Shown here: positions 8,149 to 64,000 of the stretch, piece by piece
Layout: each line of letters begins with the position of its first letter
Numbering within the stretch: position 1 is the first letter of the stretch
NCBI GenBank assembly: GCA_963847625.1
Contig: CAWKAR010000033.1
Location: 74,449-138,448 of the forward strand
Origin: a candidate division FCPU426 bacterium
GTDB lineage: Bacteria; Oederibacteriota; Muellerivitia; Muellerivitales; Muellerivitaceae
Direction of reading: 5' to 3'
DNA: 64,000 nucleotides
Made by a program: the position numbers and the translations under genes
Notes under the pieces: model-generated
What the model was told of the DNA's origin: nothing
The model's input: the letters and a program-made list of their open reading frames with translations, nothing else
The model's database searches: none

Positions 8149-8150
8149 AA

Positions 8151-10271: not shown

Positions 10272-10278
10272 TATCGCC

Positions 10279-10494: not shown

Positions 10495-10606
10495 GGATTT
10501 ACCTCCAGTGCTTTTAGAACCGGGGTGGCAGGCAATAAACCGGTTTTAGTAGACAATAGGAATTCTTTTTGCCTGCCGCCAAACCGCTATCAAGAAAATT
10601 CTCAAT

Positions 10607-10969: not shown

Positions 10970-11121
10970 CTAAAGATTATAGCCACTCGATTGCTTTTGG
11001 AATGGTGGAATTATTTTTAAACGTTGGCTACCACGTCATCCTCCCTAAAGCCATGATCAATGGTTCGCTTAGAAACTCAAAATTGATTCTTTTTTTGTGG
11101 GAAAGTTGGCAGGGGCCACCG

Positions 11122-13314: not shown

Positions 13315-13566
13315 TTCATTTTCTCCCCACGGAAGAGGCTTTTCTCCAATAGGAAAATTCCAATCGAAGAAATTTTTTCGGCAAATTTTCCATATTTTTT
13401 AATCTTAACACACCTTTTCAAAGGGTCCAATTTGAATCCCAAACTTTTCATCCAGAAACCCTTTTGTGCCGGAACCAAGTTCCTTTTCCCGTCGTTTTTT
13501 TATCGCCTGACCAGTGTGGAAGATATAATTTAGAATCACTCTTGAAAATTCAGAAAGAAGTTCTCA

Positions 13567-29921: not shown

Positions 29922-29960
29922 GAAAACCTCCTAAGATCACCCGGCCATTTACCGGATGGA

Positions 29961-32604: not shown

Positions 32605-32762
32605 ATTTGGATTATATTTGAACGGCAACCGACAGGTATCCTCAACTTGTCTTTTTTTAAAAAAAGTAAAGGGTGTATATTCCGGTTTTTTCGATTCATT
32701 ACCTCTTATATCCACCATGCATCTGGCTCTTGGATGGGTATATATCGATTCACCCTGGGCCT

Positions 32763-40534: not shown

Positions 40535-41436
40535 GAAACATCTTTTGCGATACCCTGGTTAAAAGCGCTGGCCGGCCCGACTTTGTTTTTCTCACTGGCG
40601 ATTTGGGATACATGGCCCTCGAACCCCTGCAAAAAGCCGCAAAAACACGTTTTATCAACGCGGGTATTTCGGAGCAAAACATGGTATCGGTGGCGGCAGG
40701 CCTGGCTAGAGGGGGTTTTTCCCCTTGGGCCTACAGTATTGCCCCTTTTATTTACGCCCGTCCCCTGGAGCAGGTCCGTAACGACGTGTGTTTCCACGAT
40801 TTGCCGGTCAAACTGGTTGCTAACGGCGGCGGCTACGCCTATGGGGTCATGGGGGCCACCCACCACGCCATCGAGGATTACGGCATCCTGCTTTCTCTTT
40901 TAAACATGCATGTTTTCGTTCCCGCTTTCGGGTCGGATATTCCGCCGATCGTGGAAAAACTCTTTCATTTAAACCATCCCTCCTATTTACGGCTGGGCCG
41001 CGATGAAAAACCCAAGGATTTGGAGATACCAAGTTACGCTCCCTGGCGAAAGGTCCTGGAAGGCGGAGGCCCTGTCCTTCTCATCGTCGGCCCTTTAGTC
41101 GGCGGAATTCTCTCCGTATTAAGCCAATTGGAAGAAAAAAAACGCCCTCGAATTTGGGTTTTAACCGAATTGCCCCTGGAGGAAGGAACCATTCCGGCGG
41201 AATTCCTAAACGATTTGCGGCATTCCAAGCGTCTGATGGTGGCCGAGGAACACGTGGCCCACGGGGGCGCCGGGGAAATGATAAGCCGGGTTCTTCTCTT
41301 AAAAGGGGAAGCCCCGAAACGATTTTCTCATTTTTACGCCCAAGGATACCCTTCCGGTTATTATGGGTCCCAGACTTTCCATCGAAAAGAATCCGGCTTG
41401 GCGGCGGACAACCTCTTGAAAGAATTGGAATTCTAA
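40531..41436 (+). CDS. tkt: transketolase, C-terminal (pyrimidine-binding/C-domain) subunit
   Basis: About 300 aa. Contains FINAGISEQNMVSVAAGLA. Its start overlaps the upstream stop (ATGA). The ORF in the six-frame track begins further upstream in the same frame. Confidence 0.8.
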   Translation: MRNIFCDTLVKSAGRPDFVFLTGDLGYMALEPLQKAAKTRFINAGISEQNMVSVAAGLARGGFSPWAYSIAPFIYARPLEQVRNDVCFHDLPVKLVANGGGYAYGVMGATHHAIEDYGILLSLLNMHVFVPAFGSDIPPIVEKLFHLNHPSYLRLGRDEKPKDLEIPSYAPWRKVLEGGGPVLLIVGPLVGGILSVLSQLEEKKRPRIWVLTELPLEEGTIPAEFLNDLRHSKRLMVAEEHVAHGGAGEMISRVLLLKGEAPKRFSHFYAQGYPSGYYGSQTFHRKESGLAADNLLKELEF

Positions 41437-43391
41437 TGCACATCGAGGAGAAGGTAAAAAAAATCCAAGGGCCCATATTGGTTTTAGGTGCCAGCGGTTT
41501 TATCGGCAGCCATCTGCTTCAAATGCTGTTGAAATACCGGGACGACGCCTTTGGCACGGTTTTCCATATCCCCGCGTGGCGGTTGGAGAGCTGCCCCCCG
41601 GCTCAGGTGCTCCACGCCGATCTCCTAGTGGACGCGAATCTGGATTCCCTTTTTAACCAGATCAACCCTAAAACGGTTTTTAACTGCGTCGCCTATGGCG
41701 CCTATTCTTTTGAAATCGACAGCTCCCTGATTTACCGCACCAATTTTAATATGACCGAGAAAATCCTCAGCCACCTGGAAAAAAGGAGTATTGCCGCTTA
41801 TGTCCATGCCGGCAGTTCTTCCGAATATGGCGATAACGCTTCAGGGCCGGTTGAAAACGATCCACTGGCCCCCAATAGCGATTACGCGGTTTCAAAGGTG
41901 GCGGCCGCGAATCTTCTTTTCTTTTATGGCTGCAAAAAAAACTTCCCCTGCGCCAACCTGCGCCTTTATTCGGTTTACGGCCCCTTGGAGGACTCCTCCC
42001 GGTTGATCCCGAACCTGGTTAAATCGGGCCTGGAAGGGAAATATCCCGAATTGGTCAACCCTGAGGTTTCACGTGACTTTGTCTATATCCAGGACGTTTG
42101 TGAAGCTTTCCTGGACACGGCCATCAACCTCAAGCCCCCTTATTACGGTGACTCATTCAATATCGGGAGCGGAAAAAAAACCACCATCCGAGAAGCGGCA
42201 AAAATAACCGGGGAACTCTTTAAGATCAAGAATCCGCCACCCTTTAATTCCATGCCCGAACGAAAATGGGACGTGAAAGATTGGTTTGCGGACACGCGCA
42301 AAGCCAAGGAACTCCTGGGTTGGGAAGCACGCACTTCCTTCCGGCAAGGGTTTGAGTTGACCGCCGCGTGGTATCAAAAGCTTGAGGACAAGGAAAAGTA
42401 CCGGAAGTCCTCCAAACTATTCGCGTTGGATGCCAAACACAGCCTCTCCGGCGTGATTTCCTGTTATAAAAACGCCGAGACCATTCCTTTGATATACGAA
42501 AGAGTAAAGGCGGCCTTTGAAAAACTAAAAATCGATTACGAAATCATTCTCGTGAATGACAACAGCCCGGATAACAGCGAGGAAATCATTCTCGACCTCA
42601 GCCGCAAGGACGACCATGTCATCGGAGTCTCCCATTCGAGCAAATTCGGTACCCAGGCGGCCTATCGAAGTGGAATGGAAATTTCCACCAAAAACGGGTG
42701 CGTGTTATTGAACGCCGACCTCCAGGATCCGCCGGAATTGATCGAAAAATTCGTGGAAAAATGGCGCGAAGGCAACGATGTGGTGTTTGGAAGGCAAAAA
42801 AACAGCGATATTCCTTTTTTCATGAGGACGGTTTACAACCTCTTTTATTTCATCTTTGATTACTTCTCTTACCTGGCCATTCCCCATTATGCCGGTGACT
42901 TTTCACTGATCGACCGGCGGGTGGTGAAAGCCATCCTCCAATTCCAGGAGAGGGCCTTTTTTATGAGGGGAGTCCGGGCCTACGTGGGATTCAAACAAAC
43001 GGGCGTGGACTACACCCGTACCGGAAACGCTTCGGGGAAAACCATCGCCAATTTCTTTAAAAACATCGATAACGCGAAGAAAGGGATCCTGTCTTACAGT
43101 TATACGCCCCTATCGATCCTCAGTTTCTCAGGATCCATGCTTTTCCTTTTGAGCCTGACCCTGGGCGCCCTGCAAGTCGTCGTCCGTTTGCTTTGGCCCG
43201 ACCGCGCCCCCAGGGGGACTACGACCATCCTTCTTGCTGTCCTCTTGTTCGGGTCCATTAATTTATTCGCCCTCGCCATTTTGGGCGAGTACATCGCCAA
43301 AATATTCGAGGAAGTCAAACAACGGCCGCACTTTATCCGGCGCAGCGTCATTAAGGGTGGCGAGGTCCGGTCAGTGATTGAAAATTCCTGA
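41436..43391 (+). CDS. fusion protein: N-terminal extended-SDR NAD-dependent sugar epimerase/dehydratase plus C-terminal ArnC/DPM1-like GT2 polyprenyl-phosphate glycosyltransferase with two C-terminal TM helices
   Basis: SDR region: GASGFIGSHL (GxxGxxG) and YAVSKVAAANL (YxxxK). GT2 region: ..EIILVNDNSPDNS.., SSKFGTQAAYRSG and LNADLQDPPELI (compare the DPM1/ArnC MDADLQHPP motif), then two TM helices. The start TAATG overlaps the upstream stop. Confidence 0.75.
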   Translation: MHIEEKVKKIQGPILVLGASGFIGSHLLQMLLKYRDDAFGTVFHIPAWRLESCPPAQVLHADLLVDANLDSLFNQINPKTVFNCVAYGAYSFEIDSSLIYRTNFNMTEKILSHLEKRSIAAYVHAGSSSEYGDNASGPVENDPLAPNSDYAVSKVAAANLLFFYGCKKNFPCANLRLYSVYGPLEDSSRLIPNLVKSGLEGKYPELVNPEVSRDFVYIQDVCEAFLDTAINLKPPYYGDSFNIGSGKKTTIREAAKITGELFKIKNPPPFNSMPERKWDVKDWFADTRKAKELLGWEARTSFRQGFELTAAWYQKLEDKEKYRKSSKLFALDAKHSLSGVISCYKNAETIPLIYERVKAAFEKLKIDYEIILVNDNSPDNSEEIILDLSRKDDHVIGVSHSSKFGTQAAYRSGMEISTKNGCVLLNADLQDPPELIEKFVEKWREGNDVVFGRQKNSDIPFFMRTVYNLFYFIFDYFSYLAIPHYAGDFSLIDRRVVKAILQFQERAFFMRGVRAYVGFKQTGVDYTRTGNASGKTIANFFKNIDNAKKGILSYSYTPLSILSFSGSMLFLLSLTLGALQVVVRLLWPDRAPRGTTTILLAVLLFGSINLFALAILGEYIAKIFEEVKQRPHFIRRSVIKGGEVRSVIENS

Positions 43392-43467: not shown

Positions 43468-44538
43468 CTAACGGGAATCACCGTAATAATAAAAAAGTTT
43501 TTTAACGTCGTTCTTCCCCCCAAAAGGTAGCTGGGTGCGCTCGATCCAGTCGATGGCGAATATCTGGTTTCCGCGGGGCCAGGTCAGCCGTCCAAGAACT
43601 CTTCCGGTGGCGGGATGGAGGGCGACGATACCACACCGGCTCTTGCGATGGTCCAAGCCCGGGGCGTAAGAATGAAACTTCGGAAGCACCTTGGAGACTC
43701 CCACAAAGAGAACATCCTTGACGAAACAAAGACCGCGCGTCCAGCTTTCAAGCCTTTGGACCGGCACAAAACGGTCTCCGAGGATAGGCCCGACTTCGCC
43801 GAAACCGCTGTTGTCCACCCATAAGTCCTTCCCGTGGAACCGGGCTGAATGGGGCCGCGTGAGCCCGCGCACCACCATTTCGCGTGTGCGCCCGGAAAAA
43901 ATCCCCCCCCTGCCTTCCACCGGGTAATCCGGATCACCGGGAACCTTCTTCGTCACTTGGTCGCTAGTAGCCGAGAAGAAAGAATCTCTCAATGTTCTTC
44001 CAGCCGCGATGGAGTTTAATTGAATGTGGTTTTTCTGAAAAATGGGTTTGCGGTCCCCGATGCATTTCGGCCACCAGACCCGCGTGGCTCCCAGGTCGTA
44101 ATCCAGCCGGACGACCACATTCTGGCCGACCGCGTTTCCATGCAGTTGGGCGCCGATGAAGGCGAGATCATGCAGGTAAAGACGTCCGGGAAGAAACCGC
44201 GCGCGGGTCGGCAAAAGGGGGTTTCCCCCCAGTTCCATCAAAAGGTTGGGGTTGCGGGTACAGGCGATATGGACTGTCCCTTTTGGGCGGTTGACGGCCA
44301 AACCGGATGGATGGGGGACATGAATCCACGTGGTGGTTGGGTGGCTTAAAGCCAGGACAAGATGCTCGTATTCCCGGGTCACTAAAAGGGTGATGCCGAG
44401 CCGTTCGAGGGTTTGCTTCCATCCCTTGTCCGCCTGGCACTCCAGAAGCTTGGGATCGACGCCCGTCTCGTTCCAAAGCCCTACGATTTGCGCCGGATCG
44501 CGTAGCATAAATTGATGTTTTTCGTGTAGCGGGTTCAT
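43468..44538 (-). CDS. hypothetical protein (about 356 aa), last gene of the sulfotransferase-like/GT2 operon
   Basis: I chose the start at ATG 44538 (MNPLHEKHQ..), which is ATGA-coupled to the GT2 stop. No motif recognised with confidence. Confidence 0.45.
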   Translation of the reverse strand: MNPLHEKHQFMLRDPAQIVGLWNETGVDPKLLECQADKGWKQTLERLGITLLVTREYEHLVLALSHPTTTWIHVPHPSGLAVNRPKGTVHIACTRNPNLLMELGGNPLLPTRARFLPGRLYLHDLAFIGAQLHGNAVGQNVVVRLDYDLGATRVWWPKCIGDRKPIFQKNHIQLNSIAAGRTLRDSFFSATSDQVTKKVPGDPDYPVEGRGGIFSGRTREMVVRGLTRPHSARFHGKDLWVDNSGFGEVGPILGDRFVPVQRLESWTRGLCFVKDVLFVGVSKVLPKFHSYAPGLDHRKSRCGIVALHPATGRVLGRLTWPRGNQIFAIDWIERTQLPFGGKNDVKKLFYYYGDSR

Positions 44539-45221
44539 TTCATTCTTAACCAAAGTTGGAAGGCCCCCCAATACATGCGCGCCGCGCTTTTGAAATTCGT
44601 CGTGGACTTGCCCCCGTGGCGGCTCCATCCCCCCTGCCGTATTTCCAAAACGGGTACCTTCATCCGGCTGCATCTTGCCAGAATCTCGGCATCCAGGAGG
44701 TCGCCGTCCGAGTCCAAGGAGACGCGACGCAAGAGGCTCGAATCGAAGATTTTAGGAGTTCCATTCACATCATGGCATTTTACGCGAAAAAGAATACAGC
44801 ACTCCAGGTTATACAACAGGGAGCCCATCTCCCGTAAAAAATGGCCCCGGGTGTGCCTCGAGATTTTAGCCATGGAGCCGGGTTTTTCCAAAAGTTGCTT
44901 GAAGAGCGCGGGAATCGTGGCCGGGTCGGTGCGGGCGGAATTGGCATAACAGAGAAAACGTCCCCGGGCCGATTCCAGGCCCTTTCTCACCGAAAGGCCC
45001 CATCCTCCCAACGGATTTTCAACGACACGGACATTTTTATGTTTTTTCGATAATTCCCGGCAAATTTGAGGAGAGTTATCCCAGCAAGCGTTGGGAACCA
45101 GGATGATTTCCCAGGGTTTTCCCCGGAACTCGCTCAAATAACTATCGATGACCCCAGCGATATGGTCGGCTTGGTTATGCACCGGAAGAACGACCGAAAG
45201 TTCCGGCTTCATCATCGCCAC
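44535..45221 (-). CDS. family-2 glycosyltransferase (GT-A fold)
   Basis: LSVVLPVHNQADHI (compare the GT2 motif LSVVIPxYNE) and a DXD-like region. 228 aa. Confidence 0.7.
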   Translation of the reverse strand: MAMMKPELSVVLPVHNQADHIAGVIDSYLSEFRGKPWEIILVPNACWDNSPQICRELSKKHKNVRVVENPLGGWGLSVRKGLESARGRFLCYANSARTDPATIPALFKQLLEKPGSMAKISRHTRGHFLREMGSLLYNLECCILFRVKCHDVNGTPKIFDSSLLRRVSLDSDGDLLDAEILARCSRMKVPVLEIRQGGWSRHGGKSTTNFKSAARMYWGAFQLWLRMK

Positions 45222-45239
45222 TTCCTGACGGGCAATCGA

Positions 45240-46178
45240 CTATCGCCAGAAATCTTCGTAACCCAGGATTTTAAGCCAGGGGCCCGCTTGTTCGCCGACT
45301 TGCTTGCGTTCCTCGGCGCTTAATTCCTTCGCGGTAGCCATATTGGCCTCGGACGTGGGGGTCCGGATGGTGCCCCAAGGATGAACCGTTTGGAGGGGTT
45401 GACTGTTCCATGACGGCTTCGCGAGTGTCGGCGCGGATTTCAAGCCGGCTTTTTCGCAAAAAGCGCCGAGCACACCCACGGGATCCTTCACGATATCCTC
45501 AAAACGAAGGACATGCACCCGTTTGGGCTCGCGTTCCTTCCAAAGCAGGGCGTAATACTGGCAAAGCGTCCAACCGATCAAGTAATGTTCGAGGGAAAGG
45601 GGAACAGCCCGTTTCTTGGTGTCCGCGTAGGCGGACCAAGGGTTGCGGACGATGTGAAGGATTTGGAAATCCGGCGAATCCGCCAAAATCCTGGGGGCGT
45701 CCACGACGATGATGGGGCTGTAACCCACATAAGCCTGAGGATCGGACGGCCTTTTATAATCCTTCCAAGCCTCAAAGGTTGAATAGTAGAAGGATTCCAC
45801 AATCCGGGCGCGGGTTCTCGGCCCCTTGGCCAGGTGTTCGATGAAGATTTTCCTGCGCTCGGCGTCGTCCAATTGCATCGGCGTGTCGCGGAACTTGCTC
45901 GACTGGGGAGTCTTGATGCGCACCTTGCATTCCTCGTCGATAATGGCGTGATAATCCCCCGCCGGGGATGCGCTGAGATCAAAAACCGGCCAGCGGTACT
46001 TTTGGGGGAATGTCGACTCGAAATGGTCCCGTACCAGGCGGGTGCCCGGCTGGGACTCGAAAGGATATACGAACAGCTGGGGATGGCCGTCGAGCAGGCG
46101 GTGCGTCGTATTGCCGCCATTTTCGTACATCGCGGAGATCATGATCAGCTTGAATTTGTCGGGCATGGCACGCTCCAA
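45240..46178 (-). CDS. sulfotransferase-family-like protein (tentative)
   Basis: 312 aa. The N-terminal P-loop-like IMISAMYENGGNTTH and overall composition resemble bacterial sulfotransferase families. I could not confirm a PAPS-binding motif by eye. Confidence 0.35.
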   Translation of the reverse strand: MERAMPDKFKLIMISAMYENGGNTTHRLLDGHPQLFVYPFESQPGTRLVRDHFESTFPQKYRWPVFDLSASPAGDYHAIIDEECKVRIKTPQSSKFRDTPMQLDDAERRKIFIEHLAKGPRTRARIVESFYYSTFEAWKDYKRPSDPQAYVGYSPIIVVDAPRILADSPDFQILHIVRNPWSAYADTKKRAVPLSLEHYLIGWTLCQYYALLWKEREPKRVHVLRFEDIVKDPVGVLGAFCEKAGLKSAPTLAKPSWNSQPLQTVHPWGTIRTPTSEANMATAKELSAEERKQVGEQAGPWLKILGYEDFWR

Positions 46179-46786: not shown

Positions 46787-48805
46787 TCACCACTTGTCAG
46801 ACCGGGGTTCGAAAGGGACGATCTTGTGGCGGATCAGTTCAAAGGCCAACCAAGAAGCGACAAGGATATGACCCCCCCGGTACATATGGTCATTTCCTCC
46901 GATTTCCGAAAGGGGATAAAAACTAACGCGGAAGGTCTTCATTTCAGGACTCAAATCGAAGTAATCGACATGGGCTTTCTCACAAACTTTCTTGAAGACG
47001 TCCATGCTCATCTGCGGCAATACTGTCCCGGGCAAGGTAAACAGGGCTTCCTCCAGCCTAACCGGGTTTCCTTGCGAGGTCTTTATTGCGTTCAGCTTTT
47101 TCTTCAAAAGCGCCACCGGCTCCGAGATCATTTGAGCGGCGCAATCCACTAGTTCAGGATCCGTAGGTTTGGCGGGCAACATCCATTGGATCGTGTTGAT
47201 GGGGTTAATGAGACAGTACTTTTTGGCGAGGAGCAGGTCCAAAAATTTCCTCGGGGTGCCTTTGGTCCTTTCCAGGACGGGCTTCAGAATAAACTCAGGA
47301 TCGAACGTGTACGAGGGAATGCCTTCGTCGGTCAGGGGCTTTTGAAAATAACCCCCCACCAAAAAGTCGGGAGGATAAAGGCACATAACCAAGTCCACGT
47401 CGAACTTCTTGGCGAGGTCGGGTATCGTGTAATAGGACCAGATCACAAAGTCATCGTCCACCGCCCTCGACGAATTGAAAACCTCGAAACGAGTCGGTAC
47501 ATCCCAAAGGCAGGCCATCATATTGAGGGTCTCCTCCAACCGCTTGCATATGCCGTTACTGCGTTGCCCATAGACCCCATCTGGCGAAGGATTGGGATCC
47601 TCAGGCATGACGCCCGCGGAGCGCGAATCGCCAAAGAGAATAATGCGAAATGTATGGGGTGGTTTTTTCCAGGGATACTCATAGTCCAGAAGGCCGCCGG
47701 TGTTTCCCAAATGAGGAGCTTGCAGGTCGTACAAATCCATTTCGCGATAGGAGGTCACGATGTTGAGTTGGGGGTGCGAGAAGAAAAGTTTGCGCTCCGA
47801 TTGCGGGTCCGGAATCAAAGCCATGGGAGAACTGTCATGGATATCGCTGAAAAAGGCCTCCAGAAGTGGATCCTTGGTCGTTTTTCCCCAGACCGAAACG
47901 AAAGTGACGGGTTGATATTGCGGGAGCAGGCGGGCCAGGGGGGCGGTATCCATCCTTTGGACCGCGTAGAGGATTTTCCCGGCCCAGGCCAAGCTTTCAA
48001 TTTTTTCCCCATGTGCGCAGAGGTTCCAATTGAAGGTGGCCGCCTGTCCGGCGGCGGTGACGGGAACGCCCTCGTAAACCTCTTGCCCCGCTTGGTTCGC
48101 CACGTAAAGCCGGTCGCCGGCCCCACAGAGGGCCGCTGGCTTGGGGATTTCGGCCTTCCCTTGAAAGAGCGTGGTGACTTGGTGCGTCTTCAAATCCAAT
48201 GCCCTCATGGCCCCAGGGTCCGGCTGGGTAAAGAAAAGTTTCCCTTGGGAGGCCAGGTAAACCATGTTTCCCACGATTCCCACCTGGGCTTTATCGCCTA
48301 TTCCATCGCTGACACCGGCCTGGCCGTTCCCGGCCAAGGTGGACACGGTTTTCGTTTTCAGGTTGATCAAGCGAATGCGGGAATTGCCCTCATCGCTGAC
48401 GGCGATTTGATCATCCGGGAGGACGGCCAGTTGATTGGGAAGGTTGAACACGGCGGCGGAAAGGGAGCCGTCCTTAAAGCCGGCTTGGCCTGTCCCCGCC
48501 ACAGTGGAAACCTGGTTGGCATGTTCAAAATCCACCATTCGGACGCAATGGTTGCCCCGGTCGGCGACGTAAAGCTTGGTTCCCTCCGGGTTGATGGCCA
48601 TTCCGCAGGGATTGTTAAAACGGGAGGAATAAAAGACCCCGTTGATCAATCCTGGGTCCCAGTCGCCGGCCACCAGGTCCTGGAAGCTGCTCATGGGACC
48701 GATGGCCAGGGAGGGAAGGGGAATCAAAAGCGAAATGATTAGCGGACATAGGAATCGCTTCATCACCCCAAGGGCTGTTCCCTGAAGAACCAGTCTTCGT
48801 TTCAT
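46787..48805 (-). CDS. secreted NHL-repeat beta-propeller protein fused to a C-terminal SGNH/AlgX-AlgJ-like domain
   Basis: Start ATG 48805 with GGAGG 5 nt upstream. Signal peptide KRFLCPLIISLLIPLPSLA. NHL-type repeats (LYVADRGNHCVRMVD, IAVSDEGNSRIRLIN). C-terminal GDS motif (ILFGDSRS) and GGNDHMYRGGH. Confidence 0.65.
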   Translation of the reverse strand: MKRRLVLQGTALGVMKRFLCPLIISLLIPLPSLAIGPMSSFQDLVAGDWDPGLINGVFYSSRFNNPCGMAINPEGTKLYVADRGNHCVRMVDFEHANQVSTVAGTGQAGFKDGSLSAAVFNLPNQLAVLPDDQIAVSDEGNSRIRLINLKTKTVSTLAGNGQAGVSDGIGDKAQVGIVGNMVYLASQGKLFFTQPDPGAMRALDLKTHQVTTLFQGKAEIPKPAALCGAGDRLYVANQAGQEVYEGVPVTAAGQAATFNWNLCAHGEKIESLAWAGKILYAVQRMDTAPLARLLPQYQPVTFVSVWGKTTKDPLLEAFFSDIHDSSPMALIPDPQSERKLFFSHPQLNIVTSYREMDLYDLQAPHLGNTGGLLDYEYPWKKPPHTFRIILFGDSRSAGVMPEDPNPSPDGVYGQRSNGICKRLEETLNMMACLWDVPTRFEVFNSSRAVDDDFVIWSYYTIPDLAKKFDVDLVMCLYPPDFLVGGYFQKPLTDEGIPSYTFDPEFILKPVLERTKGTPRKFLDLLLAKKYCLINPINTIQWMLPAKPTDPELVDCAAQMISEPVALLKKKLNAIKTSQGNPVRLEEALFTLPGTVLPQMSMDVFKKVCEKAHVDYFDLSPEMKTFRVSFYPLSEIGGNDHMYRGGHILVASWLAFELIRHKIVPFEPRSDKW

Positions 48806-48980
48806 ACTTGCCTCCGGATCCAATTTAAAATTCACTAGGGAGAATCGGCGCATATCCTCCCCTGACAAAAACCCCAAAAACGTCCCTGTAGCTTATCCCA
48901 ATCACCTTCAGGGGGCAACTTATAAGGAAAGATTCCAAGGTTGAATATGCTGAGATGATAAAAAAATACTTGGATTAAAG

Positions 48981-50799: not shown

Positions 50800-52992
50800 T
50801 CATTTCTTTTGAGTGATCTTGCCGAAAGCTGAGGCGGGTACCATCTCCCAACCTTTGTCGCCGGGTTTTTCCCAAATCAAATGAACCGCCAGGTTGGAGC
50901 CCTGATCCTTCTCGAATTCCAGCCGGATGGGATGGGACCCGGTCCTGAGGGATACCGGCTTCTCCAGAAGAATGGGTTTGTTGTCCAGGGACAACCTGGC
51001 CCGGTCCGTGGTCAATACTTGGAACTGGTAATTTCCTTTGCGGGGGACGGTCAGGCTTCCATCCCACCGGATGCGGAAGGGAGGGGCGGCGGTGAAGGGG
51101 AATTCCCATTTGGTGCCGAAATTCAAAAGGGCATCCCACCGAACCACCAATGGCCGGGCCTTCCAACGGCCCGACTGGATGTAAACGCCCTTCAAACCCC
51201 GGTCCCAAGGCTTGTAACTGGAGAAGGTTTCCTTTGCGACCGCGTCCACGTACACCAAGGTATGGCCCAGGGCGTCCCTCAACCCCGTTTGCTGGCCCAT
51301 GGGAAACAATAGCTGGAGGAAATCCAGTGTGCCGGCTTTATCCTCGCCTAAGAGGAATATCGAGTCCTTATCGGCGGGGAGGCGGCCGCGGGAAAGGGCC
51401 GCCAGGCTGAAGGCCGACATGTTGCCCCGGGCCGAGTAACCCAAAAAGTCCACGGTGTGATTTTTATAATAAAAGGGCTCGATATAGTAATAAAAGCCCC
51501 CGGGGACGTGGCGTTCCAAGTCTTCCAAAGTCCGGCCGATATAGGTTTGCTCCACCCCGAAACTCCTCCAGCATTCCTCGTTTCCGGCTTGGTCCGCGAA
51601 ATAAGTGCGGGCATTTTGCGAGGCGATGATACCCAACAAAAGATATAGAAGAACCGCCGGAATCCTTGAGCCCCGGAAAGCCCCGGCTTTTTGCCAGAAA
51701 AAATCCAACGCGCTGCCGGCGAAATAGGCCGCGAAAGGCGTCAAAGCCACCAGGCGGTTGGAATGCGACACATCGGTGGATAGGAGCCCGGGAAGGGCCA
51801 TGACCCAAAATCCCCAGAGTGAATAAAAGCCGGAGGGTTCCCGTCTTTTTCTCCAAAGAAGCGCCAGGCCCAGGACAAAAAGGATGGCGGTGGAGTCGTC
51901 GAGCATCCGATGGCCGGGAATGTTGTGGCGGGGATTCCGGTCCCCGGAGCGGTTGAACATCAAGGCGGTTCCGGTCCAGACGTCCCAAAGGGGTTCCAAG
52001 CTCTTCTGCCGCAAGATCTCGGTGCCGATGAATAATTCCTTCTCCCGGTGCCCGATATTTCCCCGGCTCCACATGCAGGCCAGGAGCGGCGCGGTCAGGG
52101 CCAGCACCAACAGGAAATAAATCAGGATAGGCCGAAGCATGTTTTTCCTTTTACGCACGACCAACTCGTAAAAAGAAAAAACCACCATGAGCAGAGGCAC
52201 GATCTTGAAGGCCTGGTAAGTGTAGAAGCCGGCACTTACAAACAATGCGGAAAGATAAAAGGCCCACTTCTTACCGCTTTGAAGCCAGTGGGACCAAAAG
52301 GCGATTGCCCCGAAGAGGTAGAAGGGAACCTGGAGGCTGGGGTAGCCGTTGCGGGTTTCGATCCAATTCCAACGCATGACGGCCAGGAGGAACAAAGAAA
52401 AAAGCGCCGTGCGTTGCCCGGACCATTGCCGGATGGCCCAGTAAACCAAGGGGAAGGCGGCCAGGGACAGGAGGATGAAGAAGAGGTGGAAAGTGAAATA
52501 GGAAGAACCCACCAGGCCGAACCATCCCGCCAATTGGTAGAAGAGAAGGATCTCGGGCACCTCGTAGTCCAACAACTCCCCGAAAGGGCGCCAGCCCTCG
52601 TGCAGGATGCGCAAGGCGCAAAGGCCGGTCAAACCCTGGTCGGTATGCATTCCCGAGGGCATGGAATCCAGGCGGTAGACCCGGAGAAAAAAGCCCAATC
52701 CCAGGATCAGCGCGGCCAGTAGGATCTCGATTTTCAAGGGAAGAGGGTTGGAGATGGCTGGGGAAGGGGAGGAAAGGCCCCGGAGCTTCCAAAGAGCCAA
52801 CCCGTAGAACAACAGGCCGGGCCAAAGAGTGAGGGGGTTTCCGGTCCTGGAAAGAAAAGCCTGTCCCACCAGGGCCAGGATGAGTACCGGAAAAACCGGC
52901 ATAAACGGTGAAATGGACGGTGCCGGCCTTTTTTCCGGATTTTTAAAAAGTTGGGATAAAACCAACTCAAAACTCCTTTTTAGTTTGTTCAA
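50800..52992 (-). CDS. GT-C-fold membrane glycosyltransferase with a C-terminal PA14-like carbohydrate-binding domain, paralog 8
   Basis: The polytopic N-terminal about 550 aa are GT-C-like, with a first-loop D-Q/G motif. The C-terminal about 110 aa (RWDGSLTVPRKGNYQFQVLTTDRARLSLDNKPIL..AVHLIWEKPGDKGWEMVPASAF) look like PA14/GLEYA. Confidence 0.65.
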   Translation of the reverse strand: MNKLKRSFELVLSQLFKNPEKRPAPSISPFMPVFPVLILALVGQAFLSRTGNPLTLWPGLLFYGLALWKLRGLSSPSPAISNPLPLKIEILLAALILGLGFFLRVYRLDSMPSGMHTDQGLTGLCALRILHEGWRPFGELLDYEVPEILLFYQLAGWFGLVGSSYFTFHLFFILLSLAAFPLVYWAIRQWSGQRTALFSLFLLAVMRWNWIETRNGYPSLQVPFYLFGAIAFWSHWLQSGKKWAFYLSALFVSAGFYTYQAFKIVPLLMVVFSFYELVVRKRKNMLRPILIYFLLVLALTAPLLACMWSRGNIGHREKELFIGTEILRQKSLEPLWDVWTGTALMFNRSGDRNPRHNIPGHRMLDDSTAILFVLGLALLWRKRREPSGFYSLWGFWVMALPGLLSTDVSHSNRLVALTPFAAYFAGSALDFFWQKAGAFRGSRIPAVLLYLLLGIIASQNARTYFADQAGNEECWRSFGVEQTYIGRTLEDLERHVPGGFYYYIEPFYYKNHTVDFLGYSARGNMSAFSLAALSRGRLPADKDSIFLLGEDKAGTLDFLQLLFPMGQQTGLRDALGHTLVYVDAVAKETFSSYKPWDRGLKGVYIQSGRWKARPLVVRWDALLNFGTKWEFPFTAAPPFRIRWDGSLTVPRKGNYQFQVLTTDRARLSLDNKPILLEKPVSLRTGSHPIRLEFEKDQGSNLAVHLIWEKPGDKGWEMVPASAFGKITQKK

Positions 52993-57277: not shown

Positions 57278-57565
57278 GGATATGGGGTTTCCTGGAAAAA
57301 AAGGTTTTAAGAAATCCTTGGGTTATTAAATCGCTTTATTTTAACAATATGCCACTTGTACAACTGGATTAAGTCGGTTGTTGGGAATTCCACAAGGGGA
57401 AAAGTCCTAAAATTCCTTATTTTCCCTGAGAAGGAAAAGGATATGCCTATGCGGGAATGGCATGATCCATGCGGGATGGATCGAGCAACTTCCATCCGGG
57501 TGCCGAAGGGATTGTTGGTATAATTAATAGATATCCGTGATTTTCCTTCCCTAAGGCGGGTCCCT

Positions 57566-60500
57566 TTGAAGCCCCTATTCGGCAAAATTTCCAAACTTTG
57601 TTTGGCCGGCTTAGCTTTAAGCCTGTTTCCCCAGGCGGCGACAGCCGCGTCCATCCTAGGGCATATCAAGATCGACAACTTCGGTTACCGAACGGCCGAC
57701 CAAAAGATCGCTTATTTCACCGCCAACCCCGGCACCAGTGTGGGAGTGTACAACGCCGCGACCAGCACTCTGGCTTACACCACCACCACCATCACCAGCA
57801 AGGGGACCGACCCGACGAACCCGCAAATTTCCGGGGACACTTTATGGTGGGTCGATTTTTCCGCCTTTACCACGGCCGGACAGTACTATTTGTATTCCTC
57901 CACCCTGAACGAACAGTCCTATAACTTCACGATCTCCGATTCCGTCTACCAGGCCCCCATGTCGGCCACCCTCAAGGCCATCTATTACCAAAGGTGCGGG
58001 ACCGCCAAACCCGCGGCTTATACCGGGGCCAACTGGTCCGACGCCGCCGCCTGCCATACCTCGGACGCGACGTGCGCACCGGCGTCCGGCTGCACCTTTC
58101 CCAACGCCTACGGCACCCTGAACCTGTCGGGCGGCTGGCACGACGCCGGGGATTACAACAAGTACATTGGCTCCACGCCCTCCGGGTCCTGCGCCAGCTG
58201 GGGAGGGGACAGCGGGGAAGCCCTTTGGGACCTGCTCACGGCCTACGAGTGGAACCCCACCCTTTTCGCGGGCATCACCAGCAACATCCCCGAGTCAGGC
58301 AACGGCATTCCCGATATCCTCAACGAGGCCAAGTGGGAATTGGACTGGTACCTGAAGATGCAGATGACGGATAACCATATTCTTTCGGTTGTTCATGCGC
58401 CGGGGGGAGGTGGGTCCTCTCCCCCCAGCGCTGATACCACCGCGCGCAATTACTATCCCCCCAACCCCGCGGGGGAGGCCCAGTTTGTCGCCATCATGTC
58501 CCACGCCGCCCGGGTGATGTCCGGGGTCTCGGGGCTGGCCAGCTACGCGGTGACTCTTCGAACCGCCGCCGAGAAAACCTGGAACAGCTTCGTGGCCACG
58601 GCCGCCTCCAGCGACCAGCGGTTCTGGGCCGCCGCCGAGATCTTCCGCATGGAAGAGGCCCTGGGCGGGCCGGCCTCCATCACCAGCGCGGCGCAATCCA
58701 TCGTGGATAACTATGAGGCCTGGAACGGTTTCTGGCTCAATGAGGATTTATTCCAGCAGAATTGGGGCATGTTGACCTATATGCAGGCCACCAACGCCAC
58801 GGCATCGATCGTTACCTATATGAAGGCGGATTGGGGCGTTTTGATGGGCGACCTCTTCGGCCAGAACGATTATTACAACTCGGGCATGCACAGTTACGAC
58901 TATTTCTGGGGGGCCGACGAGGTGAAGATGAACTATGGCATGCAACTGGTTTGGGCCTCCAAGCTGGGCGCGACGGGGACCTACACCAGCGCCCAGTGCC
59001 TGCAACACGCCGAGGACTTCATTCATTATATGAACGGAAGCAACCCGATCAACATGACCCTCATGACCAACGCGGCCGCCCTGGGCGCCTCCCACGGGGT
59101 TTGGCGGATTTACCACCAATGGTTCGGCAATTACAGCGTCACTTCTTCCTATAACAATTTCATCGGCAAACCCGCCTCGGTCATCGACCCGCTCTACCCT
59201 TATTTCGCGGGAACGGATAATTTCGGCATCAGCGATAGCGGCCCTTCCAGCTTCGGCCCTCCTCCGGGAATCGTTCCGGATGGGCCCGGCCACGGGTACG
59301 CCGCCGACAATGGAACAGCCCAGCCGCCCATGTTGGCTGGCAACGTGGAACCTCCCTATGAAAAAGAATACCGGGATTGGGATTGGGTGGACCCCAATGG
59401 CAACCAAAGTGTGCCCTGGGTCGTGAATGAAACGGGCCTTTATTACACCGGTTCCTACATGGCCCTGGCCTCGTTCTTTGTCACTTCCACCAGCACCACG
59501 CCCACGAATACGCCGACCATTTCGTCCACACCAACCCGGACGCTCACTCCCACCAATACGCCGACGCCGATCTCTACCGCGACCCGGACGAATTCGCCCA
59601 CCAATACGGCAACACCCACGCCAACCGCAACCAGGACGAATTCGCCCACCAATACGGCGACCCCGACTACAACCCCGACCAGGACGAATTCACCCACCAA
59701 TACGGCGACCCCGACTACAACCCCGACCAGGACGAATTCGCCCACGGCTTCGACTACGGCAACTCCTACGTCGTCGCCTACGCTCACCGCTACGCCTTCG
59801 GCTTCGCCAACGGCAACCAGGACGAACACCCCGACGAATACGGTCACGATTACACCCACGAATACTTCAACCAGCACCCCCACCAATACGGCGATCCCGA
59901 CCTCAACCCCGACCAGGACGAATTCGCCCACCAATACGATCACAGCTACACCCACGAATACGGCAACACCCACGCCAACCGCAACCAGGACGAACACCCC
60001 GACGAATACTGTCACGATTACACCCACGAATACTTCAACCAGCACCCCCACCAATACGGCGATCCCGACCTCAACCCCAACCAGGACGAATTCGCCTACC
60101 AATACGATCACGGCTACACCCACGAATACGGCAACACCCACGCCAACTGCAACCAGGACGAACACCCCGACGAATACGGTCACGATTACACCCACGAATA
60201 CGCTGACACCCACGCCTTCCGCAACTAGGACGAATACGCCCACCTCTACTCCCACCGCAACAGCCACCAGTACACCGACAGTGACACCTACGGTTACCAA
60301 TACCAGCACGGGAACCACATCACCCACACCGACCTACACGAACACCCTGACTCGTACGCTGACTCCTACATCCACGAATACGGCTACCTCTACCCCAACT
60401 CCGACAGTAACAAACACGTCCACCAACACATCCACAGCGACGCCGACTAGGTCACTTACTCCCACCTCCACAAACACTCCGTCGAACACGCCCACAGCTA

Positions 60501-62803
60501 CTCTGACGAATACTTTAACCAGTACGAGAACGAATACGCCGGCCTCTACCCCCACTGCCACGGCCAGCAATACACCGACAGTGACTTCCACGGTCACCAA
60601 TACCAGCACAGGAACCACATCTCCCACGCCGACTTTCACGAACACCCCCACCCGGACCCAAACTTCAACACCCACGAATACGGCAACTTCTACCCCGACT
60701 CCGACGGCGACCAACTCTTCCACAAGCACGCCTACGGCGACACCGACTAGGACCTTGACTCCCACTTCCACGAATACCCCGTCGAATACGGCGACAGCCA
60801 CGCCGACGAACACTTTAACCAGTACAAGAACGAATACGCCGACCTCTACCCCCACCGCCACGGCCACCAGTACACCGACGGTTACGCCTACAATCACCAA
60901 TACCAGCACGGGAACCACATCACCCACACCGACTTATACCAACACCCCCACCCGGACCCAAACTCCAACACTCACAAATACGGCAACTTCTACCCCGACT
61001 CCGACGGTGACCAACTCTTCCACAAGCACGCCTCCGGCGACACCGACTAGGACCTTGACTCCCACTTCCACGAATACCCCGTCGAATACGGCGACAGCCA
61101 CGCCGACGAACACTTTAACCAGTACAAGAACGAATACGCCGACCTCTACCCCCACCGCCACGGCCAGCAATACACCGACGGTGACGCCTACGGTTACCAA
61201 TACCACCACGGGAACCACATCTCCCACGCCGACTTACACCAACACCCCAACCCGGACCCAAACTCCAACACCCGCGAATACGGCAACTTCTACCCCGACT
61301 CCGACGGTGACCAACTCTTCCACCAACACGGCTACGGCGACACCGACTAGGACCTTAACTCCCACATCCACAAATACCCCGTCGAATACGGCGACAGTCA
61401 CGCCGACTAACACTTTAACCAGTACGAGAACGAATACGCCGACCTCTACCCCCACCGCCACGGCCAGCAGTACACCGACGGTGACGCCTACGGTCACCAA
61501 TTCCAACACGGGAACCACATCACCCACACCGACTTACACCAACACCCCAACCCGGACCCAAACTCCAACACCCACAAATACGGCAACTTCTACCCAGACT
61601 CCGACGGTGACCAACTCTTCCACCAACACGCCTCCGGCGACACCGACTAGGACACCGAGTGCGAGTGCAACGCCCTCCAGCACCCAAACTTTTACACCAA
61701 CATCGAGCTGGACCGCCTCCCAGACTCCAACGACTTCTTCGACATTAACTGGGACTCCCACATCCACGAATACCCCGTCGAATACGGCGACAGCCACGCC
61801 GACCCATACATTGACGGGGACCTCTACGCCCACCCTGACGAACACTTTAACCAGCACGAGGACGAATACGCCGACGGTGACGTCTACAGTCACCAATACC
61901 AACACCGGGACTCAATCGCCCACGCCCACTGCGACTAACACGTCCACGGTTACCAACAGCGCGACAGCCTCCCAGACTCCTACGGCTTCCTTAACATCAA
62001 CTGGGACGCCGACTTATACGCTGACCGGGACATCTACCAGCACGCCGACAAGCACCCCAAGCGCGACAGCGAGTTCGACAAGCTCACCGTCACCCTCCCA
62101 CACTCCTACGGCTTCCTTAACATCAACTGGGACGCCCACTTATACGCTGACCGGGACATCGACGGATTCGATGACGCCTACGGCGTCCCTCACCGCTACG
62201 CCTTCGGCTTCGCCAACACCGACACCAACGCCTACGAACACTTCCACCCCAACCCGTACGATGACAAATACGCCGACGATAACCTCTACCAACAGCACGA
62301 CGAACTCGCCCACTTCCACGTCAACCTATACTGAGACGCCGACAGCGACAGACACCCCAACGGCTACATCCACAACCACAACCACCAATACGGAAACAGC
62401 AACCCCCACTGCGACTTTCACGGTCAACCTGACTTTTACGTCGGCCAGCACCTCCACGAACACCCCTGCGGTTTCGGCAACAGCTACGGCCACTTCGACG
62501 GGAACTGCCGCTCCCGTTGGGAAAAATGGAGTGGTTGTTTATCCAAACCCAGTGAGAGGCCCAGGTCCGGTGACGATCCGCATTGCCTTAACCCAAAGGG
62601 AATCACTTGTTCGGGTGGAGATATTTACGCTGGCCTTCCGGAAAGTGAATGAGATTGATCTCATCCAAGTGCCGGCGGGGATTACCCCTCTTACCATCCC
62701 CCTGACGGACAAGGGAGGAAAACCCCTAGCCAATGGAATCTATTACGTGGTTGTCCAAACGCCCCAGGGCCGACAAATCGTTAAAATGTTGATTCTGCGT
62801 TAA
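57566..62803 (+). CDS. secreted giant glycoside hydrolase family 9-like protein. It has an N-terminal Ig-like/GH9 catalytic region, an about 1000-aa Thr/Pro/Ser/Asn-rich tandem-repeat stalk, and a C-terminal T9SS-like sorting/beta-sandwich domain
   Basis: TTG start with AAGG upstream and signal peptide [19 protein letters not shown]9 signatures [12 protein letters not shown] and [19 protein letters not shown]-rich repeats. C-terminal [11 protein letters not shown]...IVKMLILR resembles a T9SS CTD (YPNP motif, basic hydrophobic end). Confidence 0.75.
59487..62515 (+). repeat. coding low-complexity Thr/Pro-rich region with nested tandem repeats. The units are about 51 nt, about 168 nt (two copies from 59811) and 300 nt (five in-phase copies, 60226..61725)
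   Basis: The 50-mers at 60301, 60601, 60901, 61201 and 61501 (taccagcacgggaaccacat...) are near-identical at exactly 300-nt spacing. The blocks at 59811 and 59979 are near-identical. Confidence 0.85.
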
Positions 62804-63090
62804 GCCATTGTCCTTCTAGTGGATCCCATCAAACTCAATTCCAAAAACACGGTACGTTTCTTTTCCTGATGAGGTCCAATACTTAGTGAAAGCGTTTTAA
62901 TTCTGCGATTTTCCCAGCGAATTCGTTGATTTTATTCAGCATCGCTTGTATTCCTTTGCGGAGGGGAGTGATAAAATTATATTCTCGGTAAATTTTATTA
63001 AAAATCTGAAAACGTTTTTATGAAATTGAGACCTTAACATTCATTTCAAGTTAAAAAAATAAATTGGAACCGGTTACGGAAAATAGAACA

Positions 63091-64000
63091 ATGAAGAGTA
63101 AAAATAATCCCAAAGAAAAAATAAATACTTATACCTGGGTTCGAAACGAACTTGCCTGGATGGCATTGGCCCTCGTAATCCTAGGCTTAATGACCCCTGC
63201 CCAAGGCCAAGTCACCGGTAGCGGCAACGGGCTTTGCGCCGCCTATTACTCGGGCGAGAATTTTGATACTTTTTATTACAACGAACTCGATACCACCATC
63301 AACTTCAACTGGCCGGCAAACGGCGTGGCTCCTTCCAACGGTTCCGTAACCATTCCCAATGGCCCCTTTTCGGTCAAGTGGACCGGCATGATTATGGCTT
63401 CCTATTCCGAGCCCTATACTTTTTGTACCGCCAGCGATGACGGCGCGAGGCTTTGGATCAATGGGGTGCAGCTTGTCAACGCCTGGGTGGACCAGGGTTC
63501 CACCACCTACTGCGGGTCCATCACCCTGGTGGCGGGACAATACTACGACATTGAGATGGATTATTACGAGAACGGGGTCGGACCGGCCAACGCCCAGCTC
63601 TTATGGTCTTCCACCAGCACGACCCAGCAAATTATCCCCCAAAGCCAGCTTTATTGTTCCTGCCTGGGGCCCACCAAGTCCGTCAACACCAAGGTCGCAT
63701 CAGTTGGGAGCACCATCACCTACGTCCTGACCAACACCGATTGCGGTAGCGCCGTTTCAAATGCCTTGGTTTGGGACACATTACCTTCCTACGTCACCTA
63801 CATTTCCAGCAACCCTCCGCCCACCACCTCCAACAATCCCTATTATCTTTGGAACATCGGCTCCGTGGCCGCCAGCCAAGTCTACTCAGTCACCATCGTG
63901 GCTCGGGTGACTTCCGGCACCAACGGCACGGTCGTGAACAACTGGTCGGCGGACACGGCAGGCGGTCTTCCGCCCGAAGTATCCAATGATGCTTCCTTCA
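63091..64000 (+). CDS. secreted PA14-domain protein with downstream DUF11-like repeat region; 3' end truncated by the window edge
   Basis: Signal peptide LAWMALALVILGLMTPAQG. PA14 consensus (LCAAYYSGENF..FSVKWTGMI..YTFCTASDDGARLWINGVQLVNAW..ITLVAGQYYDIEMDYYENGG.A..QLLWSS). No stop codon before nt 64000. Confidence 0.7.
   Translation, partial: MKSKNNPKEKINTYTWVRNELAWMALALVILGLMTPAQGQVTGSGNGLCAAYYSGENFDTFYYNELDTTINFNWPANGVAPSNGSVTIPNGPFSVKWTGMIMASYSEPYTFCTASDDGARLWINGVQLVNAWVDQGSTTYCGSITLVAGQYYDIEMDYYENGVGPANAQLLWSSTSTTQQIIPQSQLYCSCLGPTKSVNTKVASVGSTITYVLTNTDCGSAVSNALVWDTLPSYVTYISSNPPPTTSNNPYYLWNIGSVAASQVYSVTIVARVTSGTNGTVVNNWSADTAGGLPPEVSNDASF

Follow-up and report, generated by a model that had tools for sequence, protein, structure and literature searches.

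A predicted GH9 glucanase with a thousand-residue (x-Thr)n stalk and a type IX-like C-terminal domain in an FCPU426 bacterium

The 64-kb stretch of contig CAWKAR010000033.1 analyzed here (the window) comes from an FCPU426 bacterium and carries, close to its 3' end, a complete open reading frame (ORF) for a large, predicted secreted protein. This protein combines a glycoside hydrolase family 9 (GH9) module, a stalk of about one thousand residues in which nearly every second residue is Thr or Ser, and a C-terminal domain (CTD) resembling the sorting domains of the type IX secretion system (T9SS). The explanation that we favor, and regard as probable, is a Sec-exported GH9 glucanase that undergoes T9SS-type sorting through its CTD and is tethered to the cell surface by a long, probably O-glycosylated (x-Thr)n stalk.

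The window was compared with related loci, taken with flanks of up to 10 kb. The best genome match, designated L001, is a 486-kb contig of an FCPU426 metagenome-assembled genome (MAG) with 92% identity over the GH9 module, and most of the other close loci are likewise labelled FCPU426. The FCPU426 16S cluster corresponds to Goldbacteria, with Firestonebacteria and Elusimicrobia as its neighbors (Doud et al. 2019, PMC7031533). The lineage was recovered by cellulose binding, carries many GH5, GH8, GH9 and GH44 genes, and includes some cellulases that were validated; secretion and linkers go unmentioned for it in that study (PMC7031533).

The GH9 module and the stalk

The gene begins at a TTG codon preceded by a Shine-Dalgarno-like motif (Table 1), with no in-frame start further 5' and an in-frame stop codon at 57521-57523. 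Judged by eye, the leader of its product has a basic n-region, a hydrophobic core and an A-x-A site, and this region is conserved in the L001 ortholog and in relatives P0001-P0018. A lipoprotein signal was considered and rejected, as a lipobox is missing and Cys12 is part of the n-region.

An Ig-like CelD_N domain and the GH9 catalytic module follow, both scoring above their Pfam cut-offs. The catalytic residues D193 and D196 (motif DAGD) and E622 (motif NETG) are intact and invariant in the 26 sequences of the clade. A profile of these 26 members matches 3X17 (E 6e-68) and C. thermocellum CelD (1CLC, 2e-63), and the segment around E622 aligns to the C-terminal 'ETNEPAIDYNA' of 3X17; we take the Glu of this motif, E622 here, to be the GH9 proton donor. 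Because the catalytic residues are intact and invariant, the module looks catalytically competent, as far as its sequence can tell. The nearest solved relatives, GH9 enzymes with an N-terminal Ig-like domain, are 3X17, CelD, J30, BoGH9A, CbhA and Alicyclobacillus Cel9A.

Substrate specificity is something that we infer from kinship and context. Most likely, the gene encodes a secreted GH9 beta-1,4-glucanase of a Goldbacteria-related bacterium and, more specifically, a cellulase. Action on another beta-glucan (xyloglucan, mixed-linkage glucan or chitosan-type oligomers) or on exopolysaccharide made by the cell itself strikes us as rather improbable, given that GH9 orthologs in related genomes sit in GH5-GH8-GH9 clusters and near a CBM3-bearing lyase, and that the lineage was captured on cellulose and has validated cellulases. 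Several observations nevertheless speak for such an alternative. The GH9 family includes xyloglucanases (BoGH9A, matched here, is one), cellobiohydrolases and exo-glucosaminidases, the neighbors in the window are envelope-glycan genes rather than other hydrolases, and no carbohydrate-binding module (CBM) was detected in the protein with Pfam. The clade is also distant from characterized members, and two facets of this distance weigh against the reading that we favor: the nearest characterized GH9 enzymes align well over the N-terminal two thirds only, and a clade-specific insertion at approximately residues 500-600 is lacking in solved structures.

The stalk that follows the catalytic module measures about 1011-1024 residues and is the longest among the approximately 40 stalks that we observed. 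It consists of 45% Thr, 14% Pro, 12% Ser, 8% Asn and 7% Ala, these five making up 80-94% of each 50-residue block, and it contains two Asp, two Glu and neither Lys nor Cys. Its register positions carry a hydroxyl residue in 494 of 505 cases (98%; 438 Thr and 56 Ser), while the alternate positions are occupied by Pro (144, 28%), Asn (83), Ala (70), Ser (69), Arg (27), Leu (25), Val (22) and others. Thr is found at both i and i+2 with a frequency of 0.379 versus an expected 0.202 (1000 shuffles; mean 0.202, standard deviation 0.008, maximum 0.228), and adjacent Thr pairs occur at a frequency of 0.019. The contrast between even and odd spacings remains constant to lags of 500 residues, and a sliding-window register track followed a single register over the whole stalk with zero slips. 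The possibility of a folded domain hidden in the stalk was rejected, since no Pfam domain was found within it and the register is unbroken.

The window stalk is poor in aromatic residues (seven Tyr, four Phe and one Trp). In some relatives, for example P0001 at residues 637-993, Trp, Phe, Tyr and Leu are abundant at the positions between the Thr residues (e.g. TWTLTPTWTATSTWTQTPSFTITPTV); if extended, such stalks would have an aromatic face opposite a face of Thr.

At the nucleotide level, the stalk draws on each of the four Thr codons, whereas the catalytic module favors ACC. The stalk-coding region displays strong GC and AT skew, and both this skew and the Val/Gly-rich antisense ORFs arise because the coding strand is ACN-rich. 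Antisense and out-of-frame ORFs in 58.7-61.9 kb, Val/Gly-rich or Arg/Pro-rich in composition, were accordingly rejected as genes and regarded as by-products of the ACN-NNN periodicity.

Tandem Repeats Finder called three repeat arrays in the stalk (Table 1). The two full copies of the 168-nt unit share 97% nucleotide identity (five differences) and 100% amino acid identity, and this array has sub-periods of 18, 24, 72 and 96 nt. Copies 2-4 of the 300-nt unit are mutually 92-93% identical and share 80-83% identity with copy 1; pairs of copies differ at 22-59 positions. All three periods are multiples of 3, so that the frame is kept, and the encoded units of 16, 56 and 100 residues are all even-numbered. 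The last third of the stalk (residues 1350-1650) lies outside the reported arrays, with lag-300 self-identity at background level beyond 61360, and nevertheless stays in register. The pattern thus calls for more than duplication of even-length units; single-codon insertions and deletions would be removed either by selection or by a six-nucleotide slippage bias.

Among catalytic modules with at least 68% identity, the attached stalks measured approximately 0 (L007), 118, 294, 395, 434, 611, 943-955 (L001) and 1024 residues (the window), indicating that stalk length evolves quickly. The L001 ortholog, a 1679-residue protein from an independent MAG, has a stalk of different repeat units, and its DNA aligns with that of the window over the GH9 module only. 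That a second giant stalk is built from other repeats indicates that giant stalks are real.

This ortholog also bears on the concern that the stalk length is an assembly artefact, with repeats expanded or mis-joined in a protein of truly about 1000 residues. We consider this very improbable. Tandem repeats of 168 and 300 nt are difficult for short-read assemblers, and most relatives measure 840-1112 residues. By contrast, the repeat copies are distinguishable by the differences listed above, the frame and the dipeptide register run unbroken over 3 kb, and about one third of the stalk lies outside the reported arrays. Together, the independent ortholog and the distinguishable copies largely answer the concern. 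An exact 45-nt scan of JGI (Joint Genome Institute) metagenomes yielded no match.

An earlier note, made from the letters of this DNA, had read much of this correctly. The ORF occupies exactly the plus-strand coordinates given there; the GH9 identity was upheld by the Pfam profile and the intact catalytic residues; and the motifs quoted for the protein were located at residues 189-200 and 250-266, with YPNP at residues 1659-1662. The description of a mucin-like Thr/Pro repeat stalk agrees with the composition and the tandem repeats, the repeats are in phase as described, and the length variation suggested there is seen among the orthologs. Of the proposed repeat units, those of 56 and 100 residues stand and the one of about 17 residues is in fact 16 residues long; the term "nested" applies to the 168-nt array with its sub-periods.

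Table 1. Features of the GH9 gene and of the GT-C and sugar-donor genes in the window (nt, nucleotides; aa, amino acids or residues)
Feature	Coordinates	Strand	Description
GH9 gene (ORF)	57566-62803	+	Complete, 1745 aa, TTG start, stop codon included
Shine-Dalgarno-like AAGG	57553-57556	+	9 nt 5' of the TTG start; direct sequence reading
Predicted Sec signal peptide	57566-57646	+	aa 1-27, followed by AS; by inspection
CelD_N Ig-like domain	57662-57901	+	aa 33-112; Pfam PF02927, 45.9 bits (cut-off 24.6)
GH9 catalytic module	57947-59461	+	aa 128-632; Pfam PF00759, 104.2 bits (cut-off 27.7)
Stalk	59483-62515	+	aa 640-1650, 3.03 kb; single-register (x-Thr/Ser)n dipeptide polymer
48-nt (16-aa) tandem array	59549-59745	+	4.1 copies; copies 3 and 4 98% identical in nt
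168-nt (56-aa) tandem array	59805-60201	+	2.4 copies, 96% matches
300-nt (100-aa) tandem array	60230-61653	+	4.7 copies, 89% matches, no indels
CTD	62528-62800	+	aa 1655-1745 (~90 aa), ends KMLILR; predicted seven-strand beta-sandwich
Seven tandem GT-C paralogs	8151-28723	-	700-770 aa, two C-terminal TPR motifs each
PMT_2 gene	13567-15108	+	513 aa, within the GT-C array
Spermidine-synthase-like gene	22290-24077	+	595 aa, within the GT-C array
PMT_2-type GT-C gene	30907-32718	-	~565 aa, without TPR
GT-C gene	33343-34929		One of 11 in the window
SDR dehydratase/epimerase-GT2 fusion	41154-43391	+	GtrB/ArnC/PgfS-like, putative polyprenyl-phosphate-sugar synthase
GT-C paralog, distant	50800-52992	-	PA14 domain; 4.6 kb 5' of the GH9 gene

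The C-terminal domain and the shared enzyme layout

In a jackhmmer search with the last 100 residues, the same CTD was recovered from 20 large ORFs of related loci and 20 further ORFs of metagenome loci, in each case at the very C-terminus. In about 40 of 40 proteins the domain extends to the final residue, and the catalytic modules that it accompanies include many unrelated ones; its consensus reads YPNP ... V.V.VFT.AFRKV ... G.PLA.GLYYVV ... KLLILR. When a profile of 24 copies was compared with the PDB, only T9SS CTDs were matched at E < 0.1: PorU (4e-6), 8glk_D, 8glj_D and PorZ, with mirolase and a GH167 tail weaker. The entries 8glk and 8glj are Flavobacterium translocon structures with substrate CTDs caught in the SprA/PorV translocon. 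TIGR04183 was matched at E < 0.01 by 19 of the 24 copies (best 1.3e-6), and a PF18962 annotation is present in relative P0010. An AlphaFold2 model of the window CTD (pLDDT 92.6) has seven strands. Its three best matches in Foldseek are all T9SS CTDs with 27-29% identity, led by the PorU CTD (29%, TM 0.72) and followed by the PorZ CTD (27%), mirolase also being listed.

Because the family profile and the predicted fold best match solved T9SS CTDs, we judge the CTD to be homologous to T9SS type A CTDs, though the window copy fails the curated cut-offs. These failures are among the points that weigh against our interpretation. In an NCBIfam search with the last 117 residues, the window CTD scored 18.7-19.6 bits against TIGR04183, below the cut-off of 23, with further weak matches to PorZ and PorU tails; in Pfam, FlgD_ig (PF13860) at residues 1667-1732 scored 25.0 bits, below the cut-off of 27. 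Furthermore, the lineage has been placed outside the Fibrobacteres-Chlorobi-Bacteroidetes (FCB) group, in which T9SS is established (PMC7031533), and no report of T9SS in Goldbacteria, FCPU426 or Elusimicrobia was found in the literature. A literature search on Thr-rich stalks of T9SS cellulases likewise found nothing relevant. The T9SS-like CTD suggested in the earlier note thus stands as homology, by profile, fold and the 19 TIGR04183-matching copies, and fell short in the family assignment suggested for the window copy itself.

It is possible, though in our view doubtful, that the CTD is instead a carbohydrate-binding Ig-like beta-sandwich, directed at the surface or at the substrate, or the signal of an undescribed export or anchoring system. 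Such a role would fit the sub-threshold scores and the host lineage, as well as the lower Foldseek matches (E ~1e-3), which comprise generic Ig-like domains, FlgD and a porphyran-binding CBM. The domain also has a conserved motif of its own, FT-x-AFRKV, that is lacking in the aligned T9SS CTDs. Against this stand the exclusive PDB profile matches, the top three fold matches and the strictly C-terminal position behind unrelated catalytic modules, which is the behavior of sorting signals. In addition, Bacteroidota GH9 homologs carry a CTD-sized tail at the same place.

The CTD-bearing proteins of the related loci also have an (x-T)n stalk, of 75-1024 residues, with few exceptions. Approximately 40 secreted carbohydrate-active enzymes in these loci share one layout of catalytic module, (xT)n stalk and CTD, the N-terminal modules being GH5, GH8, GH9, GH5 with malectin, a PL4-type lyase with CBM3, or beta-helix lyase-like. 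Their stalks comprise one to three register blocks of 50-955 residues. This layout is the standard of the lineage for secreted carbohydrate-active enzymes, and the window protein is an unusually long instance of it.

GH5, GH8 and GH9 genes occur in tandem in L002 and L003, and the GH9 ortholog in relatives is also found near the CBM3-bearing lyase. Three to four tandem large secreted enzymes, each with stalk and CTD, were observed in L002 (803-13819), L003 (2213-12514) and L089 (2293-19307). These clusters appear to represent the lineage's core cellulase locus, from which the window GH9 gene is separated. In the FCPU426-like genome of L081, weak FlgD_ig matches were observed in two further ORFs, at 2322-2834 (170 residues) and 5400-6959 (519 residues, DUF1349); if these represent the same CTD, the domain is not restricted to carbohydrate-active enzymes.

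Outside the lineage, GH9 homologs of Bacteroidota and Calditrichota have the GH9 module followed directly by a tail of 70-110 residues without a stalk, and the CTD model recognizes several of these tails. GH9 homologs of Acidobacteriota, Brocadiaceae and other phyla are without the CTD. The stalk insertion is a feature of the FCPU426 lineage itself.

GT-C genes and the glycosylation of the stalk

The window holds 11 GT-C genes, which bears out the claim that it is saturated with them. The seven tandem paralogs are 27-40% identical to one another, in an array interrupted by the two plus-strand genes listed with it (Table 1). A further gene encodes a fusion of an SDR dehydratase/epimerase with a GT2 domain, and the GT2 part best matches GtrB sll0501 (E 7e-57), with further matches to NCBIfam PgfS (1e-55) and ArnC (6e-33). 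Enzymes of the GtrB/ArnC/PgfS type make polyprenyl-phosphate sugars for GT-C transferases. With GT-C genes and a GtrB-like synthase in one window, the biochemical parts for periplasmic O-glycosylation are present. Candidate partners of the stalk would be the SDR-GT2 fusion, the PMT_2-type GT-C at 30907-32718, the seven-paralog array and the PA14-bearing GT-C 5' of the GH9 gene.

Strong precedents for such a system exist. In Caldicellulosiruptor bescii, the sole GT39 gene lies inside the glucan degradation locus, its deletion abolishes cellulase glycosylation, and the glycosylated cellulases have alternating Thr/Pro linkers (PMC6151902). The Pro/Thr (PT) linkers of Cellulomonas, 30-63 residues long, are heavily mannosylated (PMC12757957), and the streptococcal GtrB/PgtC2 and Pgf systems glycosylate Ser/Thr-rich disordered regions, leading to protection from proteolysis (PMC12041528). 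By analogy with these cases, O-glycosylation of the stalk is plausible.

The identity of the GT-C proteins is less clear-cut. Each matches PMT_2 or belongs to a family in which such matches occur; the scores range from 23 to 36 bits, around the cut-off of 26.1, no NCBIfam family matched them, and searches against solved structures with single sequences and profiles gave no match except to the TPR motifs. An AlphaFold2 model of one member of the main family (about 700 residues) adopts the GT-C fold (pLDDT 91.7). The subfamilies are restricted to the lineage; the numbers of homologs among 5.8 billion proteins are 27 and 69, the latter figure applying to the 700-770-residue family at E <= 1e-10.

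Several results weigh against the stalk as the acceptor. In the fold search, ArnT ranked first for the modelled GT-C (E 1.6e-8), followed by matches that include ALG9, STT3, Pmt4 (rank 6), ALG12 and Pmt1/2; ArnT is a lipid A glycosyltransferase. In 23 of the 25 related loci, no GT-C of the three subfamilies was found within 10 kb of the GH9 gene, and in all five further contexts of GT-C genes of the 30907-32718 subfamily no stalked enzyme lies next to them. The window also holds Acyl_transf_3, MBOAT and sulfotransferase genes, and the region may simply be a cell-envelope glycan region. The Bacteroidota-type O-glycosylation motif D-S/T-A/I/L/V/M/T is not enriched and occurs once in the stalk; as a basis for glycosylation it was rejected. 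Since the ArnT-like fold and the acyltransferase, MBOAT and sulfotransferase neighbors fit a lipid or polysaccharide acceptor equally well, the modelled fold leaves a lipid or glycan acceptor for the GT-C proteins equally possible.

In two loci the GT-C and GH9 genes do lie together. In L001, a 566-residue GT-C gene (8085-9785, plus strand), 52% identical to the 30907-32718 product, ends 192 bp 5' of the GH9 ortholog (9977-15016) on the same strand, and another homolog of this GT-C lies beside the L003 cluster. As these were the only adjacent cases among the 25 loci, a conserved GT-C/GH9 operon linkage was rejected.

These observations frame an alternative in which the stalk is an unglycosylated disordered spacer, the GT-C proteins act on lipids or polysaccharides, and the two share no more than a chromosome region. 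We hold this to be unlikely, if conceivable. The ArnT-like fold, the JGI name "4-amino-4-deoxy-L-arabinose transferase-like" borne by some GT-C homologs, a dehydratase-GT2 fusion akin to the logic of ArnA/ArnC, the envelope-modifying neighbors and the loci without a flanking GT-C gene would all be expected from it. By contrast, a bare disordered chain of 1000 residues would be very exposed to proteases, and the characterized bacterial Thr/Pro linkers and Ser/Thr-rich extracytoplasmic regions that have been examined are all glycosylated by GT-C enzymes (PMC6151902, PMC12757957, PMC12041528). The 98% hydroxyl register over about 1000 residues, within a layout shared by about 40 proteins, points to selection on the side chains, the TPR motifs on seven GT-C proteins suggest protein partners, and the GT-C gene directly 5' of the L001 ortholog argues in the same direction.

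The earlier note had argued for the stalk as an acceptor from its proximity to PMT-like (protein O-mannosyltransferase-like) GT-C genes. The precedent that it invoked, GT39 glycosylation of Thr/Pro cellulase linkers, is sound (PMC12757957), with a closer one in C. bescii (PMC6151902). Proximity itself turned out to be a weak argument, given the 23 of 25 loci without a nearby GT-C gene, and for the modelled main-family member the closest fold is that of ArnT rather than PMT.

Other genes were observed in and around this region. The SDR-GT2 fusion gene is immediately preceded by a split transketolase-like pair (39749-40534 and 40462-41436), and these genes may jointly produce an unusual lipid-linked sugar donor. 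In L083, a GT-C gene like that at 50800-52992 (6383-8587; 734 residues, weak PA14 match) lies near a homolog of the 565-residue GT-C, indicating that GT-C genes tend to cluster together. Two squalene/phytoene-synthase-family genes and a flavin amine-oxidase-family gene are located between GT-C genes of the window, at 28587-30830 and 35082-35954 on the minus strand, a set that looks like HpnC/HpnD/HpnE squalene synthesis. The interval from the sugar-donor gene to the GH9 gene contains genes for DUF4915, sulfotransferase-family and NHL-repeat proteins (43468-46178 and 46787-48877, minus strand). Directly 3' of the GH9 gene, an ORF at 63055-64000 (plus strand) with a signal-like leader, PA14 and DUF11 runs off the window end; at the left end, an AddB/AddA-type helicase-nuclease pair (1676-8148, plus strand) consists of ordinary housekeeping genes.

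Proposed model and comparison with known systems

In the model that we favor, Sec would carry the GH9 protein across the inner membrane. A T9SS-like route, specified by the CTD, would then bring the protein through or onto the outer membrane, with its C-terminal end remaining attached at the cell surface. The approximately 500 regularly spaced hydroxyl residues would probably be O-glycosylated in the periplasm, by a GT-C transferase using a polyprenyl-phosphate sugar from the GtrB-like GT2. Such glycosylation would stiffen the stalk and shield it against proteases. The stalk would hold the enzyme tens to a few hundred nanometers out, giving it reach to insoluble plant polymer, and its length could shift quickly through gain or loss of repeats in two-residue units. 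With 0.2-0.34 nm per residue as the general polymer figure, an extended stalk of 1011 residues would span about 200-340 nm, and an unmodified coil would be far shorter.

A bolder extension of this model, which we offer tentatively and consider unlikely to hold in full, is that a T9SS-like pathway outside the FCB group plants a whole set of enzymes on (x-Thr)n stalks of 100-1000 residues, with every second residue glycosylated by the expanded GT-C set. The stalks would then be bottle-brush tethers of up to a few hundred nanometers. Collectively, the enzymes would make up a cell-attached cellulolytic layer of a novel, non-cellulosomal kind, and gaining or losing repeats would adjust how far it extends.

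A T9SS-type CTD on dozens of enzymes from a lineage near Elusimicrobia would mean that type IX secretion is more widespread than known, or else that a related pathway exists. The 505-fold repetition of x-Thr/Ser in one register represents an extreme and chemically regular candidate acceptor, located beside GT-C genes and a lipid-sugar synthase. Stalk and GT-C proteins together would offer a natural system for studying how GT-C enzymes choose protein substrates and how dense O-glycosylation affects a tether; linker length and glycosylation matter in the engineering of such enzymes. The lineage is uncultured, and long-stalk surface enzymes would represent a third strategy beside free enzymes and cellulosomes. 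If the stalk is unglycosylated or the CTD is used otherwise, what is left is a modular cellulase of ordinary type whose linker is unusually long.

Both cellulases exported by T9SS and glycosylated PT linkers have been described before. Their combination is new here, as are the host phylum and the strict phasing and 16-35-fold greater length of the stalk. The closest counterparts in architecture are the T9SS-exported GH9 and other cellulases of Bacteroidota (e.g. Cytophaga; here the GH9 homologs of loci L046-L080), which share the Sec leader, the Ig-like domain with GH9 and a type A-like CTD of about 80-90 residues. Those enzymes have little or no linker, whereas a stalk of about 1011 residues is inserted here. 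The host phylum here lies outside the FCB group and the T9SS route is read from the CTD, which has its own FT-x-AFRKV motif and scores under the TIGR04183 cut-off.

The stalk itself resembles the linkers of Cellulomonas fimi, C. flavigena and Caldicellulosiruptor bescii CelA, in which x-Thr/Ser likewise alternates in secreted cellulases of hosts with genomic GT-C genes. Like the C. bescii GT39 gene within its cellulase locus, a GT-C gene adjoins the GH9 ortholog in L001, an arrangement that is not conserved in the other loci. The known linkers of 30-63 residues lead to a CBM in Gram-positive hosts; by contrast, the stalk here is 16-35 times longer, leads to a putative sorting or anchoring domain, and has Pro at the x position in only 28% of cases. 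Unlike in the GT39-glycosylated linkers, glycosylation here is predicted, and the likeness of the modelled GT-C to ArnT is no weaker than its likeness to PMT.

With the streptococcal GtrB and PgtC2 or Pgf systems (Cnm, WapA), the window shares a GtrB/PgfS-like GT2 (E 1e-55 to 7e-57), GT-C proteins and a candidate acceptor that is an extracytoplasmic, Ser/Thr-rich disordered region. It differs in the fusion of the GT2 to an SDR domain, in having 11 GT-C genes versus one or two, and in that the link to the acceptor is proposed. In overall plan, the protein recalls the serine-rich repeat adhesins and "periscope" proteins of Gram-positive bacteria, which combine an N-terminal head, a tandem-repeat stalk that varies between strains and a C-terminal surface anchor. 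Those adhesins differ in their LPXTG/sortase anchor, in cytoplasmic glycosylation by GtfA/B and in repeat chemistry, so that the likeness is one of analogy without homology.

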